Shown here: piece after piece, positions 9,766 through 32,607 of the stretch
Position numbering within the stretch: position 1 is the first letter of the stretch
Layout of the letters: each line of letters begins with the position of its first letter
From: a virus
Taxonomy: Duplodnaviria > Caudoviricetes
Strand: one strand, 5' to 3'
Virus record (IMG/VR): IMGVR_UViG_3300025889_000505
Location: 1-33,101 of that record
DNA: 33,101 nucleotides
Notes under the pieces: model-generated
What the model was told of the DNA's origin: nothing
The model's input: only the letters and a program-made list of their open reading frames with translations
The model's database searches: none
Program-made: the position numbers and the translations under genes

Positions 9766-11201
9766 TGTTTCGTTACCTTTCTATAAACTGACGTATGTTT
9801 AGAAATTGCTTCATGACCACCAGAACGAACAGAACGCATCAAGTCTGCCTTCTGACCTTTGTCTTTTAATTTACTATGGTAGTCAACAACGTGTTGTAAA
9901 TCTTTGTGATTGCTGTAAACTTTAGTTTTACCACCAATCTTTAAAGAAACTTTTCTTCCACCTAAACTAGGATGCATGGCGTCAGCTGCTTTTGCTAATG
10001 TGTTATGAACAGTTGAGTGGTGATCGTTGCTCTTAATTTCGAAATCTAAAGGTTTTGCTGCTTTTTGATCCCAATCACCGTCTTTTTTAGCAGTCCCTTT
10101 TGCTGGTCCACGACGAGCACCACGTTTTGCTAAATTTGCTGCCTTACGTTTTGCAAGATCAGATTTAAAATCTTCAAATGTTTTTAAAACATTAGTGTCA
10201 CGAGGCGTAAAATCAGTGTCCTCTTTTGCGAGGCGAGAATTTGCTCGAGCGATACCTTTAGATCGATTATCTGCTGCGCGTTGATGAACCTTCGCCATCT
10301 TATCAGTCCAGTCTGACTTGTTATCGCCTGTCCTGGTCGCGTAGTCATGAGCGATACGCTTTTGTCTTGGTTGATCGTCAGATGCTTTGTCGCGATATCT
10401 CTTAACAGTGTCCGGCGAAAGTTCTTTGATGTTGTCTTCTTTGTGTAACATAGAACTACCGCCGATAGCATTAGCATGATGAATCTTTGCCATCTTGGAG
10501 TGATAGTCGCCTTTAGTCTTAACTCTATATTGATGATAGTCTCTTGCCTTGGCATGATCCAACTTAGACATATCTCTCATGTCTTTACCTTTTCCTGGAC
10601 CATTTTTATCTGCCATCGTTGCTTCGACTGTATGACCTTTATCGTTAGTTTTGTGGACAGTATATTTGCCGCCAACTTTATCAACTTTATTGCCTCGGGC
10701 AGCATGCTTATCGGCGCTCATTTTATTGTCGAAATGTTTTTCGCGACCATGCTTTTCGTGTCCAGGATTGTTGTATTTAACCGCGAATCCTTCGTTTGCT
10801 TTTTTCATCAAATCTTTAAGTTTTGAGAGTTTATCAAGGTCGGGTTTACTGATCGCTGCTTTCTTCTTTTTGTTAGCGATAGCATCCATAGACTTGCCGT
10901 AAGCGTCAGTAGATTCTTTCTTTGCTGGCAATCCTTTGTGCTTAGTAGCGGCAAAGTCTTTAACGTCTTTCTTGCTCATAGATGCTGCTGCCTTCTTAAT
11001 CTCTGGAGAAGCGTTGGGCATTTCGCCTTTCTGTTTTGCGCGAACCATGCCAAAAAACTTTTGTTGTGCTTTAGAAACTGCTTTCTCTTGCTGAACTATA
11101 GCATCGTCTGTTCGCTTTTTCCGAAACTTAATTTTTCCTGTTTCGGGATCGCGATACTTGACTAATTTAAAGTCAGATGATTTTACTTGTTCGTTTTCCA
11201 T
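9762..11201 (-). CDS. basic multi-module putative internal head protein containing a DUF3008-like module
   Basis: KAVSKAQQKFFGMV...SMSKKDVKDFAATKHKGLP; K/H-rich modules separated by Glu sites; late promoter upstream. Confidence 0.7.
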   Translation of the reverse strand: MENEQVKSSDFKLVKYRDPETGKIKFRKKRTDDAIVQQEKAVSKAQQKFFGMVRAKQKGEMPNASPEIKKAAASMSKKDVKDFAATKHKGLPAKKESTDAYGKSMDAIANKKKKAAISKPDLDKLSKLKDLMKKANEGFAVKYNNPGHEKHGREKHFDNKMSADKHAARGNKVDKVGGKYTVHKTNDKGHTVEATMADKNGPGKGKDMRDMSKLDHAKARDYHQYRVKTKGDYHSKMAKIHHANAIGGSSMLHKEDNIKELSPDTVKRYRDKASDDQPRQKRIAHDYATRTGDNKSDWTDKMAKVHQRAADNRSKGIARANSRLAKEDTDFTPRDTNVLKTFEDFKSDLAKRKAANLAKRGARRGPAKGTAKKDGDWDQKAAKPLDFEIKSNDHHSTVHNTLAKAADAMHPSLGGRKVSLKIGGKTKVYSNHKDLQHVVDYHSKLKDKGQKADLMRSVRSGGHEAISKHTSVYRKVTKQ

Positions 11202-11206
11202 AAACT

Positions 11207-12424
11207 TTATTTATAGTTTTTCTTATGTTTACTATAACCCTTTTTCACTTCTTTCTTTTTATTAGGTTCAACTTTTGCTTTGTTAAATTTTTGTGAGAAT
11301 TTAGCAACAGGATTCTTTGTTTCTCTTCTGGTAACAAAATCAAACTTGGAATCTTTTTTATTAGGGTCAGTATTTCTGTTTCTTGCTCTGGCGCGAGAAA
11401 TTCTTGCTCGATCTAACATTCGATCGTGCTTAACTTTATCTTGTTCTTTTTCGCGATCAATTTTATTTTTGGCAATTTTAACTGGATCAATGGCGTCAAC
11501 TAAATCCAATTCTTCTTCCTGTTGTCCAGGAGTTATCTTTTTTGCTTTCTTGGTGGATTCAGGAGTTCCCCATTCAGGTTGATCTTTGTACCATCGATCA
11601 GTTTTTTCATATACAATGCCATCTAACCATTGCCTACTAACTCTGCCTTCATCTAAAGCAACAATAACGTAATTTGCTCCAAGTCGATAGATATAACCTG
11701 ATTTGCCATTTTCTTTAATTATTACTCGATCGCCTGGTTCAAACAATTCACCATTTATATACTTTTCTCTGGTTTCACTAAGAAGACCCAAATCGATGTG
11801 CTGTTTAAAATCTTTAGACTCTTTCATACCCATACCAACACGAATATCATTAAACAGTTTTCTCGTGTCTACTGTAGACATTTTGGAAGGAACGCCTTGT
11901 TGAAATGATGTGAAATCATTTGAAGCAGCGTTCGCGCGCTGTTTGCTCGCCGACATGCCCTCAACTCCTTCTGAGTCTGGGTCCCTATCACCAGCAGAAG
12001 CAACGTTTATCCGTTCGAAGTTATAAAATCCGTGCTTACCTTTGACTCCGTTGTACTTGTTTAACAGAGTCTCGAATTCTACGATACGATCTTGACCAAC
12101 AACCATTGTGACTTTTTTATATCCTTGGTTGTATAGGTTGGTTGCTGCGTCAAAAACGTTCTTAATTTTTTTATTGAGTAAAATGTTTCTTGCATGATTT
12201 GGAAACATTTTCCTAGAGTGCTTGATCTTGTTCGGATAACTGAGAGGGTTCTTTTTGGCATCAACTGATTGCGAAAGAAAAATCTTGTATGGATTTCTAC
12301 CTGCCTTTCGACTTAGAACGTCAAGCAGTTTTTGGTGTCCAACGGTTGGAGGATTCATTCTTCCGAAAGTGAAAAATATCTCGCGTTCCTCTTCTACGAG
12401 ATACTGTTTAAATGACGGTATCAT
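11207..12424 (-). CDS. HIGH-superfamily nucleotidyltransferase (cytidylyltransferase/NMNAT-like) of T4-like phages
   Basis: FTFGRMNPPTVGH, KNPL, MVVGQDR, AGDRDPD, MSASK; KOW/SH3-like and basic C-terminal extensions. Confidence 0.8.
   Translation of the reverse strand: MIPSFKQYLVEEEREIFFTFGRMNPPTVGHQKLLDVLSRKAGRNPYKIFLSQSVDAKKNPLSYPNKIKHSRKMFPNHARNILLNKKIKNVFDAATNLYNQGYKKVTMVVGQDRIVEFETLLNKYNGVKGKHGFYNFERINVASAGDRDPDSEGVEGMSASKQRANAASNDFTSFQQGVPSKMSTVDTRKLFNDIRVGMGMKESKDFKQHIDLGLLSETREKYINGELFEPGDRVIIKENGKSGYIYRLGANYVIVALDEGRVSRQWLDGIVYEKTDRWYKDQPEWGTPESTKKAKKITPGQQEEELDLVDAIDPVKIAKNKIDREKEQDKVKHDRMLDRARISRARARNRNTDPNKKDSKFDFVTRRETKNPVAKFSQKFNKAKVEPNKKKEVKKGYSKHKKNYK
11208..11215 (-). promoter_or_regulatory. 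T4-type late promoter TATAAATA, 6 nt before ATG 11201
   Basis: Exact consensus overlapping the upstream stop codon. Confidence 0.75.
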
Positions 12425-12853
12425 TTATTTCTCGCTTTTATTTGCTCCAGATCTACGATCCTTTTCTCTTTTACGAATAGTCGGCAGAAGTTTTCTTGCC
12501 AGTTTTTCTATTCTCCCTTTCATTTTATCTAGTCGCTTTTCAATCTCTTGTCTACGAGCGAACGGTAACTCTGCTTTTGATTTACCTTTAGAAAATTTCT
12601 TAAAGAGTGCAGCTCTTGCTGCTTTTTTGGATCTGCGAGATAATCTTTCTGGGTCTGCTGCTCTCTTTTTTGCTTTTCTTTGACCCATTGCAATCTTCGC
12701 CTTCATTTTTTTCATGAGGCGAGCGCGAGCTCTTCTTTGCTGGAAGTTTAATGCTTCAGTCTTACGATCTTTGGCATTGTTACTAATGTGATCGTCACCG
12801 TCGGCGGTGTAATCTACAGTTAGAAAATCTTTAAACTTTAATGGCTTTGCCAT
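12425..12853 (-). CDS. highly basic helical hypothetical protein
   Basis: 142 aa, K/R-rich; LKFKDFL N-terminal motif; packed between neighbours. Confidence 0.75.
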   Translation of the reverse strand: MAKPLKFKDFLTVDYTADGDDHISNNAKDRKTEALNFQQRRARARLMKKMKAKIAMGQRKAKKRAADPERLSRRSKKAARAALFKKFSKGKSKAELPFARRQEIEKRLDKMKGRIEKLARKLLPTIRKREKDRRSGANKSEK

Positions 12854-12854
12854 C

Positions 12855-14078
12855 TTATTTCCTCGTCGGTTTATCCCATCCCTTCAAAATATCAGGCGAA
12901 AAGTTGTTGTATGAAAATTCCATTCTATCAACAATCTTTACCGCATCACCACCTAGTCGGTCAACGGCAACGAATCCTTCAGCACCCGTTACCTTAAATC
13001 CTTTGCGAGTTTTTACAAAGGTATCTACATTCCCAAGTTTATTCAATTTATTTATAAGTTTTAACTTTGCTGTTACAATTAATTTTTGTAACTCAAACAT
13101 CTGTATTAAGTTGACTTTGTTTTTGAGCGAGAAGAAGTTGAGGAGTTCGTCTCGCTTTTGTCTTTGCGAGGTCTTCCCCGCTTGGGTTTTTCGCTGGGCG
13201 ATTTCTTTCCCGTACTTGCTTTTGATCCATCGGATGAGTTTTTCCGTGTGCGCGACGGTGTTTCCGATGATTTCTCCTTTACGGACGAATGTGTTGTTGT
13301 AGGTTTCGATGTGCTGGGCGAGGGTTTGGTTTCCTTCAAGTTCTCGGAGGGTACTTCCTGAGATTTGGTTGAAGATCCTACCAATTTCTGCCAAAGTTTC
13401 ATTAACATCTTCTGTCTCCCTTTTAGTCATGGTTGCGCTGGTTAAATTACGCAGCATTGCGTCTTGAGACCAAACATTAGAAGACTTCTTCAATGCCTTC
13501 ACGTTCACACCATAAGATGCTTTCATAGTCTCGAATGTTCTACCAGTATATGTAGTATGCCACACAATACCGATTTTTGCCCTGCGTATAACTGCCGACT
13601 GTTCGTAAGGTACAGCATACACAATAGTGTTTGGGTGAAAAGTCACATACTTTTGACCATCAATTGTTTCGGTGGATAAGTCTCCGCGCCCAAACAGAAA
13701 GTCGCCCTGAATTACCCCTTTGATATCTAAAGCAGGTAAATATTTCAGAGCGTCTTTCAGTTTGGCAGAAAGATCGCCTGACGTATCAGCGTCGATCTCT
13801 GCATTGGTCTTATAGACCTTTGGGTTCTTGTTAAAGATACCCTTCTTAGCAACAAAGAACTGCCCGTCCCTGGGATCAATACCAGCGAAGATTGCGGGAG
13901 CACCGTCCCACTTCACTGATACACTTCCCTCTTTCTTGCCTCCTAACATATCGCGAAGATCACGCAGAGCAAAAATTGCTTGACGTGTGCCTTTAACACC
14001 GCCATATAGCACTTTGTCCTCGATATGAGTCATGTGCGTATTTTTTTGCTCTGTTAATGTGTCTGCAAATGATAGCAT
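12855..14078 (-). CDS. DUF6267-like protein, ATP-dependent ligase/nucleotidyltransferase fold
   Basis: KNTHMTHIED; VKWDGAP (KxDG motif I), QGDF, EGFV, KIVDR. Confidence 0.75.
   Translation of the reverse strand: MLSFADTLTEQKNTHMTHIEDKVLYGGVKGTRQAIFALRDLRDMLGGKKEGSVSVKWDGAPAIFAGIDPRDGQFFVAKKGIFNKNPKVYKTNAEIDADTSGDLSAKLKDALKYLPALDIKGVIQGDFLFGRGDLSTETIDGQKYVTFHPNTIVYAVPYEQSAVIRRAKIGIVWHTTYTGRTFETMKASYGVNVKALKKSSNVWSQDAMLRNLTSATMTKRETEDVNETLAEIGRIFNQISGSTLRELEGNQTLAQHIETYNNTFVRKGEIIGNTVAHTEKLIRWIKSKYGKEIAQRKTQAGKTSQRQKRDELLNFFSLKNKVNLIQMFELQKLIVTAKLKLINKLNKLGNVDTFVKTRKGFKVTGAEGFVAVDRLGGDAVKIVDRMEFSYNNFSPDILKGWDKPTRK
13106..13408 (-). CDS. overprinted (+1 frame) Ser/Lys/Thr-rich protein with AT-hook
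   Basis: AGGGAG SD 7 nt before ATG 13408; KPKRGRPRK; host-frame codons almost lack third-position T across this interval. Confidence 0.7.
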   Translation of the reverse strand: MLMKLWQKLVGSSTKSQEVPSENLKETKPSPSTSKPTTTHSSVKEKSSETPSRTRKNSSDGSKASTGKKSPSEKPKRGRPRKDKSETNSSTSSRSKTKST

Positions 14079-15248: not shown

Positions 15249-15256
15249 TATTTATA
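15249..15256 (-). promoter_or_regulatory. T4-type late promoter TATAAATA
   Basis: Exact consensus upstream of the spike base gene. Confidence 0.8.
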
Positions 15257-16425: not shown

Positions 16426-16632
16426 CTATTTATATTTGGGATAGTCTTTCGGATCTTCTTCTCTTAGAGATTCTATTCTGTCGACGATTTGTTTCTTCTT
16501 CGCATCGTCATAGTAACTCCAGTTTTCAATTTCTACTGACATACGTTTACAACCAATGCAATACGCATTCCAAGTAGGATCTAATATACAAACTCCAATG
16601 CAGGGTGACGGAACCTTACCACTCAACAGCAA
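16426..16632 (-). CDS. DUF1289 family Cys-rich protein
   Basis: SPCIGVC...CIGCKR..EI.NW; start codon uncertain. Confidence 0.8.
   Translation of the reverse strand: MLLSGKVPSPCIGVCILDPTWNAYCIGCKRMSVEIENWSYYDDAKKKQIVDRIESLREEDPKDYPKYK
16427..16434 (-). promoter_or_regulatory. T4-type late promoter TATAAATA, 5 nt before ATG 16421
   Basis: Exact consensus. Confidence 0.75.
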
Positions 16633-20467: not shown

Positions 20468-21355
20468 TCACTCCATCATAGTTGCAAAAGCTTTGCGCCA
20501 AATTTCTTCATGCCGATCGTCGTCAATAAAAGCATTGCATTTATTGCAGGGAGTAAGGGATCGGTCACCTCTCCCCAAAGCAAATCTATATTCTTTAAAT
20601 TTTGGTTCGGTAAGTAAATGTTCTTCAATGGAAACCTCTCGAATGTTTTTGAATGATATCAAATCAGTCCAATCGTTGCAACACAAACGATACTCGCCAT
20701 CGACATCAATGTAAACATCTGTCCAAGGTTTTCTACAAGTTTTACCATGAGCATCAGAAACAGATTTCATCGGTATGATATTGTCAGGAATTGCTCCTGA
20801 TCTGTTCACATATTTAACAATGGATTGATGTCCAACATCATTAGTTCTTATCTCCACACCAACTTCATTTTTTCCAGTAGTTCCTCTGTCTTGCACACGG
20901 ACAGTTTTATATTTTTTAAGATCATCTTTTATTTTTAGATATTCTACATAACTTCTATCAGAATAGCAATTAAAGTCAACTAATTGAAACTTATCGAAAT
21001 GTTTTGGTATCCAATCTGAATACTTGTACCCATTCGTCACAATAAGGTCTGCAGCTTTTTCTTGACCATAATGGTTTAAGTTATGTTCAAACATTCTTGT
21101 AATAAAATTATCAAAGTCGTTGTGTAGTGTTGGTTCTCCTCTACCAATGATAAAAATTTGAAGTATGATATCATATTTCTTATAGAAATTTAATCTTGAT
21201 TCTAAAATAAGATCAAGGGTTTCCATTGACATATGAATATTTTGATTAGGATATCCGTGTGCTCTCGGACAAAAACTACACCTTAAATTACAAAGTTCAG
21301 TTATGTTTAACTCTATCCTTGGTGTTTGAATAGAATCAGGATAAGGAAATTTCAT
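20468..21355 (-). CDS. radical SAM protein with SPASM/twitch domain
   Basis: CNLRCSFC; GRGEPTLH; TNG; CRKPW...LCCND...CNKC. Confidence 0.9.
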   Translation of the reverse strand: MKFPYPDSIQTPRIELNITELCNLRCSFCPRAHGYPNQNIHMSMETLDLILESRLNFYKKYDIILQIFIIGRGEPTLHNDFDNFITRMFEHNLNHYGQEKAADLIVTNGYKYSDWIPKHFDKFQLVDFNCYSDRSYVEYLKIKDDLKKYKTVRVQDRGTTGKNEVGVEIRTNDVGHQSIVKYVNRSGAIPDNIIPMKSVSDAHGKTCRKPWTDVYIDVDGEYRLCCNDWTDLISFKNIREVSIEEHLLTEPKFKEYRFALGRGDRSLTPCNKCNAFIDDDRHEEIWRKAFATMME

Positions 21356-22566
21356 TATTGAATGGCGTATCTACTCAATTCATTATCGTACAAACCGTTC
21401 TCTAAGAAATCAACCAATAGAGTAATCTCGGTTTCAGTCAACCCGAGAGGAGTAAACCTGTAGTCAAGATATTCTGTAGGGATATCTGCTTGTGGCACTG
21501 CAGCGTTCTTATACTCAACAACCTGACGAACAGATGCAAAGGAAGCTCCATGTCCAAATATATTTGTGTCTTTTAAATTGTACAATGTCGGAATCTTAAA
21601 CTTGTAGTTATCAAGATCCTGTTTAGTAAACCCACCTCTTCCTTTTCGAACGTCTTCAGAAACTTCTCCGACAATGAAGTTCATAGCATCAAGATCAGCA
21701 AACCCTACCGCCATAAACACTTCCTCTGCTGGAGCATATTGCCTAGAACTAAGAGCAGGACCAGTATGACAACCACTGCACCCAGCGTTACCGAAGAACA
21801 ACTGTGCACCTTTAAGTTGATTGTCAGTCATAGCAGTTTTATCGCCGCGTAACCATTTCTGAAACGGTGCACGATTGGTTAGAACTGTGCGTTCGTATGC
21901 TCCCATCGCTTGAGCAGCAGAAGGCACATCCTCTATCCCAGTCAAACGATGAACACCTATCGCTGCTGCTGCTTGAGTTTCAACGCCACTCCACTGTCTT
22001 GAGTTGTTTTGTTTTGGCGTTCCTTCTGTCATTAAAATTGCTGGGTCAATTCCAGCATTAATAATACCATCGGGAGAGTTACCGAACTGTCCATTCCAAA
22101 GCATCACTTCTTGGTATGCCACATTAACAATGGTCGGCGAGGCAATAGGTTGAACGTCAACGCGGACGTCTTCGTCTGAACTCACAAGTGTTCTGTCTGC
22201 TCCTTCGCCTACTCCTCCTTCTCCTATACCCTGAGCGATACCTGATTTAAAACCAGACGGCGCATTGTGACAAGAAGCGCAAGAGAACGTGCCGTTTAGT
22301 TCAGGTATTTTTCCTATGCCTACTGACTTGTCGTGAAATATAATTTTTCCTTGCTCAACTTTTTCTTTGGTAATCGGATTGAGTGGGTCCTGGGGGATAG
22401 AGTCATAGTCATCGCTCTCTGGTAAAATGAAAGCATCAACGTCACCTATAATTGACAATAAAATATCTGACTCTGTCGGAACAGCAACAGGTTCCGGTGT
22501 TGTAGAATTTCCCCCAGACCCACCACATCCGTAAAGAAAAAGAAAAAGAACAATAATTTTTTTCAT
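21355..22566 (-). CDS. di-heme cytochrome c peroxidase/MauG family lipoprotein
   Basis: Lipobox LYGC; NPITKEKVEQG; CASCH and CSGCH heme motifs; SPTIVNVAY..LWNG; FKIPTLYNL; FGHGA. Confidence 0.9.
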   Translation of the reverse strand: MKKIIVLFLFLYGCGGSGGNSTTPEPVAVPTESDILLSIIGDVDAFILPESDDYDSIPQDPLNPITKEKVEQGKIIFHDKSVGIGKIPELNGTFSCASCHNAPSGFKSGIAQGIGEGGVGEGADRTLVSSDEDVRVDVQPIASPTIVNVAYQEVMLWNGQFGNSPDGIINAGIDPAILMTEGTPKQNNSRQWSGVETQAAAAIGVHRLTGIEDVPSAAQAMGAYERTVLTNRAPFQKWLRGDKTAMTDNQLKGAQLFFGNAGCSGCHTGPALSSRQYAPAEEVFMAVGFADLDAMNFIVGEVSEDVRKGRGGFTKQDLDNYKFKIPTLYNLKDTNIFGHGASFASVRQVVEYKNAAVPQADIPTEYLDYRFTPLGLTETEITLLVDFLENGLYDNELSRYAIQ

Positions 22567-27441: not shown

Positions 27442-27653
27442 ATTGTTCTCCTATTAACAAATTCTGCAACAAAATATTTTCTTATAACAGCGGTAACAAA
27501 AAATGCAGCAGTTAGAAACGGTGCTGCTTCTAATGCTGACATATTTAATTCATATGCTATTGATAAGAATACAAAGTTTAAACATAAATTGATAGGTGTT
27601 GCTGCTAATGTATCTAACAAAGAAAATTTAAATGATTGCCTATTAAATTTCAT
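27438..27653 (-). CDS. small two-TM membrane protein
   Basis: Two hydrophobic helices, IRKYFV C-terminus. Confidence 0.65.
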   Translation of the reverse strand: MKFNRQSFKFSLLDTLAATPINLCLNFVFLSIAYELNMSALEAAPFLTAAFFVTAVIRKYFVAEFVNRRTI

Positions 27654-28485
27654 AGTTCGTTAACAGTAACTCCTTTCTATTGGACTCATCTTTACGGTAC
27701 ATTTTACCTGAATGCATTGTATATGTCAAGTCCCATTCTTTTTGATGCCAAACATCAAAGAGTCCTCTAATCTCAGGACTAGAGTTATAAGTAATCATCA
27801 CATTTCCTTTGCAATTAAATGCATCTTCAGCAAATTGCTCGTGATTAAATCCGAGGTGATGACTACCTTTCTTGCCATATAATCCTGACTTAATATCATA
27901 AGGAGGATCAGCAAAAACAAATTCGTCTTCTCTACAATCTACTAAGACTGTTTTGTAATCTAGATTAGTGATCAACCAATTTTTAATCAAATCAGAATAT
28001 TGCGGAAGTCTCTCGATATTACTTCTGGAAAAGTTAGATTGACTGGCAGCTGCAGAAAACCCTGAAGACTCCCCAAGACCAGAAAAACTGCACTTATTAC
28101 AAATGAAGAAACGAACAGCAGTCCCAAAAGGATCAAGAGGTTTACCGAGTGCTTCTCTACTTTCAAGAAAAAGTTCTCGATGCGATTGAGTAACATCTTC
28201 ATATGTTTCTGCCTTTAGTTTGTAATTTAAGACAGCATTATATAGTGCTTCTCCGTTTTTCTGAAGTTGTGACCAGAAGCAAAAGAGATTTTTGTAGATA
28301 TCGTTAACCCAAATCTGAGTATCCGGATATCGTTTAGTGAACTCAATTGCTACTGATCCGCCACCTAAGAATGGTTCACGATATGCTGATATATTATCAG
28401 GCAGATGATCAAAAATAAATTTTGTTGCTCTAGATTTTCCACCTGGATATCTTAGTGGAGTCTTTAGAGATTTTAAACTACCCAT
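27643..28485 (-). CDS. dam: DNA adenine methyltransferase (D12/Dam class)
   Basis: LRYPGGKS, EPFLGGGS, ND, DPPY, ELLLTNY; start could alternatively be 28518. Confidence 0.9.
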   Translation of the reverse strand: MGSLKSLKTPLRYPGGKSRATKFIFDHLPDNISAYREPFLGGGSVAIEFTKRYPDTQIWVNDIYKNLFCFWSQLQKNGEALYNAVLNYKLKAETYEDVTQSHRELFLESREALGKPLDPFGTAVRFFICNKCSFSGLGESSGFSAAASQSNFSRSNIERLPQYSDLIKNWLITNLDYKTVLVDCREDEFVFADPPYDIKSGLYGKKGSHHLGFNHEQFAEDAFNCKGNVMITYNSSPEIRGLFDVWHQKEWDLTYTMHSGKMYRKDESNRKELLLTNYEI

Positions 28486-28873
28486 TTGCTTCGCCGATAT
28501 ATTTTTTTCTGTTTGCATCCCATTCTTCTGGAGTTACATTATCAATTGAAGTCCAACCGCTTGGTTCCCAATTGTGATGTCCAGGAGCAACAGGATATGT
28601 CTCAACATTTTCTTGATCGTGGATATGTAATTGAATCAATGCATAATGCAAGATCTTCATCACATCCTTACGCCACTCATCAGGATTGCCTTTGCGCCCA
28701 TATCTCTTTGCGTATTTGATGACGTTTCCAAGGCAAAACCCAGTACCATGACCACTATCAATAATGATATCAGTCGCTTGGTACTTATCCGTTGCATAAT
28801 GTTGGTCGTATGTTTGATCGACATATCGCTTAAACTCCTCTATGAGTTTGTCTTCATTAAATTTATAGTTCAT
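28478..28873 (-). CDS. DUF3310 family protein (T7 gp1.7 nucleotide-kinase-like)
   Basis: HY...DII...GFCLGNVIKYAKRYGRKG...DVMKILHY. Confidence 0.85.
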   Translation of the reverse strand: MNYKFNEDKLIEEFKRYVDQTYDQHYATDKYQATDIIIDSGHGTGFCLGNVIKYAKRYGRKGNPDEWRKDVMKILHYALIQLHIHDQENVETYPVAPGHHNWEPSGWTSIDNVTPEEWDANRKKYIGEANG

Positions 28874-30490: not shown

Positions 30491-31297
30491 TTAAACAAGA
30501 AAATCAGCAAGGGATGATTCGACTTTTTGATATCTGCCTCCTGAGGTATCCCTAAGTCTCAGTTCAGCATTTCCAGTGGACTTTCGTATGTACATCGTAC
30601 AAAGGTCCGGAAACATTTTTGCGATCTTGTCGATAGATTCATAAACATATTCTTTAGTGCGAACAGTTTGTAACCCACCTTCTTCTTTGTAGTAGTTGCT
30701 TTTAACAGTGTAGTTGTCCAGTCTGCACAAAACACCGTTCTTTACATATTGACGCAGACTGTACTCATAGTCCTCGCCATGATTGGTCACGCGAGCAAGG
30801 TAATCATCATGCTCAACAATAACACCAAACATAGAAGCAATAACATAACAAAGTTTAGTGTAGACTCGATCCTTCATAAAATATGCATTTGATGCTGCAT
30901 ATATTCCAAACGTTTTAGCACCAACTTCTACGCATTTATTGAAACCTTGCTCAATAATTTCAGAATACAAATCATCAATCGGTACGAGAGTTTTCTCGTC
31001 TTTTCTTCGTTGCACTTCTTCGATGTCATCATCAAACATCATAAGGTAAGTGCCTTCAGGATATGACTTTTCAATATGGTTACGTTGCGCACCAATAGTT
31101 GGTACGCCAATGCTTATGTTGCGTCCATATTTATGATCGCCAAGTGCTTTATCGTACGACTCAAACTCTTCTTCATTAGCGACCCAGATAGTAACTCTTT
31201 CAGGAGGAATGTTATGTTGTTCAAAAACTTTTAAAGTTTTGTTTTGAATTGTTACTGGTCTCTTATAACTTGGTACTGCTATTTGATAATCTATCAT
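30491..31297 (-). CDS. TET-associated glycosyltransferase (TAGT/GREB1-like GT-A)
   Basis: IAVPSYKR, QRNHI, MFDDDI, GEDYEYSL, EGGL; coupled to the TET gene. Confidence 0.85.
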   Translation of the reverse strand: MIDYQIAVPSYKRPVTIQNKTLKVFEQHNIPPERVTIWVANEEEFESYDKALGDHKYGRNISIGVPTIGAQRNHIEKSYPEGTYLMMFDDDIEEVQRRKDEKTLVPIDDLYSEIIEQGFNKCVEVGAKTFGIYAASNAYFMKDRVYTKLCYVIASMFGVIVEHDDYLARVTNHGEDYEYSLRQYVKNGVLCRLDNYTVKSNYYKEEGGLQTVRTKEYVYESIDKIAKMFPDLCTMYIRKSTGNAELRLRDTSGGRYQKVESSLADFLV

Positions 31298-32607
31298 AGA
31301 AATCCTGCTAAACTTCCTGCTTCAACTTGCGGGTGGTATTGCTGTAGCATATCTTCGCCACCGTTATCTCGAAGATAATCATACCACTCATCGCTTGACC
31401 ACATACCTGCAGTCACACCATTAAATTTTGGATCGTTACGTTCTTTTCGTCTGGACTCAACAAAATTATATCTGTGACTTTCATATTCCCAACTGCCTAA
31501 TTCTAGCATTTTTTCTCGGAAATAGCAAACGAGAGAGATACGTTCCATGTCTTCAAGTTTTTGACCAGCAGGTGGTTTAATTTCAGTGTTGCCATGAATA
31601 CCTTCATGATTATTAATCAGAAGCAGGTCACCAGGTCTAACGTCAATTGCTACTCTGTATTCAGGTAGCACCAGATATCCTCCTTCCCATTCTTTTTCGT
31701 TAGCAACTACAGTTAGATTAGAGAACCCTTCAGATAGGTCACCAGCGTCCCTGTGAGCGGCAGTGCGGAAATTTTTATTCACGGTAATGGTAGTGAAAGG
31801 GGTTGATGTACCAGCAACTCGAAACCTTTCGTCCAGCAGATTTGCTTTGTTGTTTTGAGCAGAAAATCTGTTGGGCAGAAGTTCATTAAATTCACAAGAA
31901 AGTTTCTGCATAAAGGGAAAGCATTTAGAAAAGACTTCTGGATATTTTGCAGTGTAAGATGTTGCTCTACCATAAGGAATTCTTGGATAACGATCATAGA
32001 AACCAGCAATCCCAGAGTTTACCTGATTGGCATAGGATGTATCAGAAACATAAGTTTTCTTCACCAAAGCAGCATCTTTTCTTGCTTCTTCAAGAGAGGT
32101 TGACTTCCATTCTTCTAACTTCTTCTGAAAGAAATCTTCATAAGTGTATCCGGCAGATGATATTTTTTCGCGCAACCATACCATACCTCTAGCACCAGAA
32201 TCTTTATTGTTTTTATGAAATAATTCTATCTCGTCTAGTCCGCTGACACCTGTAACGCTGTTGGAAGAACCTTTAATAAAGTAATCCATAATGTCAAACT
32301 GATAGTCTGTCACCCAGTCACGATTGTTTAACTTACCTTCTTTTGGTCCAGCAGCGAGTCCGCGATTTTGAGTTGGTTGTGCTGCACCAACCAATCCTTC
32401 ATACGCACCAGACTGCTCGCTTGCAGTAAAAACATTCTTGCGAAATTTAAAAATGCAATTAGACTCATCAGCATTACCGCCAAGGGATTTGTTTACAAAA
32501 AACAAATCGGTGTCTTCATTTATAATTTGGTCGTAATGATTTTCGTCAAGAAACTTTCCTAGCAAATGTTCGCAAGTTATTTTTGACTCTCTAATTATTA
32601 CATTCAT
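31294..32607 (-). CDS. TET/JBP family 2OG-Fe(II) dioxygenase
   Basis: FTTITVNKNFRTAAHRDAGD (HxD), GGYLVLPEY, HGNT, RISLVCYFREKM. Confidence 0.85.
   Translation of the reverse strand: MNVIIRESKITCEHLLGKFLDENHYDQIINEDTDLFFVNKSLGGNADESNCIFKFRKNVFTASEQSGAYEGLVGAAQPTQNRGLAAGPKEGKLNNRDWVTDYQFDIMDYFIKGSSNSVTGVSGLDEIELFHKNNKDSGARGMVWLREKISSAGYTYEDFFQKKLEEWKSTSLEEARKDAALVKKTYVSDTSYANQVNSGIAGFYDRYPRIPYGRATSYTAKYPEVFSKCFPFMQKLSCEFNELLPNRFSAQNNKANLLDERFRVAGTSTPFTTITVNKNFRTAAHRDAGDLSEGFSNLTVVANEKEWEGGYLVLPEYRVAIDVRPGDLLLINNHEGIHGNTEIKPPAGQKLEDMERISLVCYFREKMLELGSWEYESHRYNFVESRRKERNDPKFNGVTAGMWSSDEWYDYLRDNGGEDMLQQYHPQVEAGSLAGFL

Follow-up and report, generated by a model that had tools for sequence, protein, structure and literature searches.

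A probable second gene overprinted in the +1 frame of the DUF6267 gene of aquatic T4-like phages

Among phages, the nested members of the lambda Rz/Rz1 and phiX174 D/E pairs lie in the +1 frame of the gene that surrounds them and have a start of their own. According to the annotation of the T4 record, 30.3' is a small gene wholly nested within 30.3 on the same strand, in another frame and with internal translation. A review of overprinting (Pavesi 2021; PMC8227390) describes viral proteins that arose de novo in this way as biased towards disorder, and products of the +1 frame as enriched in hydrophobic residues. A literature search that covered the main text of papers outside subscription found none on the T4 30.3 overlap or on the overlap in DUF6267 described here, and a search on DUF6267 found no paper naming it.

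The window (the whole stretch of DNA analysed, 33,101 nucleotides) is a fragment of a T4-like phage. Of the named records, that of phage C48C1, which is listed under Kyanoviridae, is the closest, with 68% identity in the host protein, by which we mean the product of the gene that surrounds the nested frame. The features are as follows, with positions given in the window.

12855..14078, minus strand: host gene DUF6267 (PF19782, phrog_455), 407 codons, the ancestral frame
13106-13408, minus strand: candidate nested gene, 100 codons, offset +1 in DUF6267, host codons 224-324
13416-13421, minus strand: Shine-Dalgarno-like (SD) AGGGAG of the nested gene, 7 nt upstream of its ATG
13373..13408, minus strand: predicted N-terminal amphipathic helix of the nested product, approximately residues 1-12
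13109..13372, minus strand: predicted disordered Ser/Thr/Lys/Pro tail, coinciding with the zone of the host gene that is poor in third-position T
13163..13189, minus strand: AT-hook-like basic patch KPKRGRPRK, residues 74-82, lineage-restricted
13049-13056, minus strand: T4-type late-promoter motif TATAAATA, inside DUF6267, 50 nt beyond the nested stop
15249-15256, minus strand: second upstream late-promoter motif, TATAAATA-type
16427..16434, minus strand: upstream late-promoter motif, TATAAATA-type

The nested frame resembles 30.3' in that it would be a small same-strand gene of a T4-like phage, wholly nested in another frame and translated internally, but it sits in a different host gene, and the 75-aa product of 30.3' has no similarity to it by eye and no Ser/Thr/Pro tail. 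It shares +1 nesting and an own start with Rz1 and phiX174 E, and a hydrophobic clade of relatives (see below) resembles E in character; unlike these, the product has no Cys, and so no lipobox Cys, has no transmembrane stretch (maximum 19-residue hydropathy -0.16), and lysis genes are not adjacent. Restricted distribution, disorder bias and an older ancestral frame are shared with the de novo proteins of Pavesi 2021 (PMC8227390), a review that centres on small eukaryotic viruses, whereas most forms here, in contrast to the +1 products described there, are under selection for hydrophilic character. A single RGRP core flanked by basic residues, together with Lys/Pro/Ser/Thr-rich disorder, recalls HMGA (PF02178) and histone H1-like tails, but the single hook scores below the Pfam cut-off and is missing in most relatives, and no homology to AT-hook proteins was found. 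The T4 internal proteins IPI-IPIII are comparable in being small and basic, in an operon of proteins with N-termini like a capsid-targeting sequence (CTS), and with hydrophobic residues at positions 4 and 7; unlike them, the nested product has no Glu cleavage site and a low CTS profile score.

The model of the DUF6267 protein has a ligase-like N-terminal domain followed by a helical domain at approximately residues 219-348, and it is this all-helical region that the nested overlap covers. A KxDG-type motif, KWDG, is invariant. The alignment of residues 57-211 with the RNA editing ligase REL1 was middling to weak (Z 6.8), and that with Trl1 had Z 5.5; these scores are tied with those of unrelated helical bundles, and a Foldseek search with the model gave no significant match. 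The host protein is less conserved across the overlap in every group of relatives, including those in which the +1 frame is closed.

The motif TATAAATA, which we take to be the T4 late-promoter consensus, is kept inside DUF6267 in 115 of 123 clusters of relatives (defined below); the copy at 13049-13056 would drive the 142-aa and nucleotidyltransferase genes that lie downstream, and forms a third information layer in the host gene. The motifs at 16427 and 15249 are the likely source of an mRNA carrying both frames. The N-termini encoded at 12425-12853, 11207-12424 and 12855-14078 (all minus strand) resemble the T4 capsid-targeting sequence (F-x-x-Y/F-L/I-x-E), and these products are probably head cargo. 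Elsewhere in the window, a gene for a TET-associated glycosyltransferase (PF20691) adjoins one for a Tet/JBP oxygenase (PF12851) at 30491-32607 (minus strand), likely a DNA base-modification pair; an adenine methylase gene is found at 27643-28518; and at 20468-22566 (minus strand) a radical SAM/SPASM gene adjoins a di-haem cytochrome c peroxidase-like (MauG family) gene, which is unusual for a phage.

Over host codons 234-323 of this phage only three of 90 codons end in T (AGT, CTT and CGT), 21 of the 22 NTN codons are NTC, and TTA, ATA, TTT, ATT and GTA reappear in the host frame at and after the nested stop. These features had been described, the NTC bias without the count, in an earlier reading of the sequence alone. 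That reading also reported the 100-codon ORF, an AGGGAG that ends 7 nt short of its ATG, and KPKRGRPRK as residues 74-82, and all of these details were recovered here. That sequence-only reading also took the bias to strip both stops and hydrophobic residues from the +1 frame. A T in the third position of a host codon (T3) falls in the middle of the overlapping +1 codon, which then encodes a hydrophobic residue, so the avoidance of T3 does keep hydrophobic residues out of the +1 product; it is avoidance of NTA and NTG that keeps out the stops instead. When DUF6267 was recoded synonymously with its amino acids fixed, 22 T3 codons were expected over the tested stretch as against three observed (z -5.5), and a stop-free +1 frame had a probability of 0.0045. 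The lowest T3 count of any 50-codon stretch was 0, in the nested zone, and the next-lowest in the other long minus-strand ORFs of the window were 5, in an out-of-frame ORF, and 6. Third positions of the overlap favour C and A. An ATG-led +1 ORF of 123 codons is also present at 10184-10555 (minus strand) inside a 479-aa gene, where the host frame shows no T3 depletion.

Conservation of the frame was determined in two sets of relatives. The first comprised 80 loci found with the host protein, five found with the nested product and four named phages, which fell into 62 clusters when grouped at 90% nucleotide identity. In 25 of these, against 0.64 expected, the +1 frame was open across host codons 227-308 (82 codons); the 25 include this phage and two clusters retrieved with its nested product. 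The +2 frame was open in one. The larger set of 240 host-selected loci gave 123 clusters, this phage included; here 89 clusters had an open +1 frame of at least 55 codons, against 5.6 expected with host amino acids fixed in the null, in a sample that favours overlap-bearing relatives as part of the searches used the overlap region as query. The frame was closed in the remaining 34 clusters, and as it can be lost in this way it is dispensable; it is also closed in C48C1, the one cultured phage of the clade among the relatives analysed. The other four frames were open in 1, 15, 19 and 0 of the 123 clusters; a bias aimed at the +2 or an antisense frame was rejected on these counts, and two of the three T-ending codons in this gene create +2 stops. 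In outgroups with 36-52% host identity, the +1 frame was open in none of 73 clusters (four partial loci of 160 were skipped), and we therefore consider the host frame to be the older and the nested frame to be confined to one clade.

The start signal follows the frame. An SD with ATG was present in 65 of 88 open relatives and in none of 34 closed ones, whereas of 795 other out-of-frame ATGs in the same genes, 46 had this SD motif ahead of them. Among 26 phylogenetically independent pairs of open and closed relatives, 15 differed, always with the signal on the open side (15:0), and 11 had no motif on either side. The SD shifts with the start. In some lineages, including that of this phage, the start is at host codon 223-224, and in most it is at 226; the ORF of this phage has a further in-frame ATG as its codon 3, which corresponds to the usual start among relatives. 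A frameshift fusion of the host and nested frames was rejected in favour of independent initiation, because this phage and many relatives have +1 stops a short distance upstream, and because the SD covaries with openness. A single JGI protein joins the N-terminal part of the host to the nested tail, and this chimera is probably a one-base indel or assembly error. A dedicated promoter motif directly upstream of the nested ORF was found in only one of the 123 clusters. Reads from a single RNA run (0.07 share) fell in scattered short pieces with almost none over the ORF, and support neither side.

The extent of the codon bias also differs by lineage. In hydrophilic forms, the ratio of T to C at the third positions of host codons 314-323 was 43:18 where the peptide had already ended and 3:61 where it continues, and in the 55-aa forms it was 42:157 ahead of the stop and 81:31 beyond it (pooled counts, which include kin). 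In closed relatives T3 is at background, 0.60-0.76. As the T-poor zone extends only as far as the +1 stop of the lineage concerned, selection acts on the peptide; constraint on the RNA would not track each lineage's stop and is for this reason disfavoured. Because relatives keep, shorten or lose the frame together with its start signal, the nested frame is very probably a real gene, and from these comparisons we put the probability that it is real at about 0.93. It very probably arose de novo, by overprinting over the helical domain of the host, and very probably represents a previously unannotated de novo family. The proposal in the sequence-only reading of a selected second gene missed by gene callers is strongly supported by the open frame, by the tie of SD and ATG to openness and by a bias that ends at lineage stops. 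Close homologues retain the synonymous constraint, even if the frame is gone from 34 of the 123 clusters, and of the properties that reading expected from an alignment of homologues, the open frame, the SD and the codon constraint were borne out, and conservation of RGRP was not.

Within the product, selection is seen at individual residues. Position 5 is Arg, Gln or His in 61 of 69 open relatives and in 10 of 34 closed ones; the corresponding counts are 57/69 and 18/34 for Leu7, and 53/69 and 16/34 for Leu11. More generally, open relatives more often than closed ones have polar residues at 5-6 and hydrophobic residues at 4, 7, 10 and 11, with an aromatic residue at position 4 and Leu at 7 in nested heads, although part of this pattern follows from the host residues. 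The hydrophobic moment of the head was above the null in 71 of 83 relatives; that of this phage is 0.73, with a z of 0.6 when taken from Met3, and its head is shorter than the family's. AlphaFold predicted one helix at residues 2-15 of the nested product and coil for the rest, with low confidence. A predicted amphipathic N-terminal helix is conserved in most lineages. For the tail, 22 hydrophilic sequences were compared with a null already barred from T3. Pro was above this null, and Gln/Asn/His below it, in all 22, and Lys was preferred to Arg. Net charge exceeded the null in 20 of the 22 across codons 281-307, whereas across codons 241-280 it did so in only nine. The Lys richness of the tail is due in part to the A-rich codons of the host.

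An AT-hook, which the sequence-only reading had taken as the function in the manner of HMGA, is not supported for the family. RGRP occurs in four of 49 full-length nested products, with PGRP in one more; three of these five belong to the sub-lineage of this phage, at host G-K-T, and the other two to another lineage at a site five codons earlier. At a conserved host R-K-T site where GRP can be reached by silent changes, it is used by none of 15 hydrophilic forms, 12 of which read AKP, and overall GRP is used at four of 32 reachable sites. The Pfam AT_hook model (PF02178) gave 14.2 bits against a cut-off of 17.4, and matches below the cut-off were also found in control genomes. Most relatives carry Lys/Ala/Pro-rich repeats in place of the AT-hook. 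The AT-hook is one form that a basic patch can take, and it is not the conserved feature of the family. It may possibly be functional in the sub-lineage of this phage, where the motif is kept. DNA condensation, tethering and competition with H-NS, as suggested in the sequence-only reading, are hypothetical roles.

The nested products end 55, 67, 83, 87 or 96-99 codons past codon 226, and their tails diverge widely, with lengths from 55 to approximately 100 aa and the head kept. The shortest, which stop 55 codons after codon 226, are found in 18 clusters and have no basic patch. Fourteen clusters encode a hydrophobic product, 13 of them in one clade of 22 rows (support 0.98) on a FastTree phylogeny from which the overlap was excluded and two short rows dropped. 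This clade mostly keeps a strong SD and the open frame, with T3 at background or higher and no bias towards C. At thirteen loci, host codons 226-310 encode, from the same SD and start, hydrophobic products of 55-83 aa that are membrane-peptide-like and mostly of one clade. On the same tree the long hydrophilic forms branch deepest, with weak basal support, and losses are scattered.

No free-standing homologue of the nested product was found by phmmer or by a profile search of a 5.8-billion set, and a set of 1.84 billion proteins gave only two hits, both derived from this overlap. No homologue was present elsewhere in ten phage records, and Pfam and PHROG searches with 19 nested products gave nothing consistent. 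A composition filter applied to the window and five large contigs recovered no analogue, and missed one known nested form without an SD motif. Three unnamed viral clusters in the ESM Atlas matched the nested product at 0.80, and serve as a lead only.

Could such a pattern arise with no second gene, through a U-poor, C/A-rich stretch constrained as RNA or DNA, through host amino-acid make-up or by chance? The preference for C and A at third positions, the part of the head that follows host residues and the Met found at the codon-226 position in nine of 34 closed relatives could all be read in this way. We regard this as highly improbable, as the nulls hold host amino acids fixed, closed relatives have background T3, the bias stops with each lineage's +1 frame, the SD covaries with openness, and the hydrophobic clade keeps its frame without any C bias. 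It is also improbable, if less so, that translation is itself the function, with ribosomes from the internal SD tuning DUF6267 synthesis or mRNA stability and a peptide that need only be non-toxic. That the same SD and ATG yield hydrophilic or hydrophobic products according to clade would be explained by this, but the residue-level selection in head and tail would not, and the stop varies in position, uncoupled from any downstream start.

For the product itself, we tentatively favour a membrane-binding helix joined to a basic nucleic-acid-binding tail, acting as a late accessory tether, and would put this at somewhat below even odds. Late expression from the upstream TATAAATA promoters would give an mRNA with both frames, on which ribosomes would initiate internally at the nested SD; the short amphipathic helix may then bind the inner membrane and the basic patch on the disordered tail may grip nucleic acid non-specifically, so that the product could, at a guess, be a dispensable late protein that tethers phage DNA to the membrane or spaces the two apart. 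No one mechanism of head plus basic tail fits all forms, given the 55-codon forms in 18 clusters and the hydrophobic ones in 14. The helix might instead work alone, through membrane or protein binding, with a tail that is just soluble and harmless and a basic patch and AT-hook that are incidental. The constant head on tails of varied length and sequence, the lack of a basic patch in the 55-aa forms and the low use of GRP where it is reachable agree with this, but keeping 70-90 codons under constraint would cost more than stopping early, the values for Pro, Lys and charge lie above those of a null that is already hydrophilic, and the long forms are the deepest in the tree (with weak basal support); we consider it unlikely. 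Equally unlikely, in our view, is a basic internal head protein with an uncleaved CTS as its N-terminus and a tail that neutralises or condenses packaged DNA. Its neighbours do have CTS-like leaders: a profile trained on the host DUF6267 and nucleotidyltransferase families gives 10.2 (top 1.6%) for the 142-aa gene, which was not in the training set, and eight of 22 hydrophilic nested heads lie above the 95th background percentile. According to one article (PMC9026906), residues 4 and 7 are the main determinants of T4 capsid targeting, for which cleavage at 10 is not required, and the aromatic residue at 4 and Leu7 of nested heads compare with these. Hydrophobic residues at these two positions are a pattern that any amphipathic helix gives, however, and the head of this phage scores -9.1, a value that 23% of background N-termini equal or better. 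Furthermore, Glu is found at 9-12 in none of the 22 hydrophilic heads, the residues at 10-11 are hydrophobic, and in several relatives the helix reaches approximately 20 residues, a length typical of membrane helices.

A fuller history can be drawn for the membrane-to-DNA tether, although taken as a whole it is rather unlikely. The gene would have been born at the root of a large T4-like clade, with an AT-hook evolving twice, at two host sites; elsewhere it would have been shortened or lost, or the same frame would have switched its product from hydrophilic and disordered to a hydrophobic membrane peptide, with the host enzyme uninterrupted throughout. If this is true, the life history of a new gene can be read in more than 100 natural alleles.

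With the nested frame, a common group of aquatic T4-like phages gains a gene family that had not been annotated, and the case indicates that conserved genes of large phages can conceal selected second frames, for which the wobble-position signature offers a simple screen. Birth, truncation, loss and the switch from hydrophilic to hydrophobic product are all sampled, and the host frame supplies an indel-poor alignment, which would make this a clean system for the study of how de novo proteins gain disorder and function.
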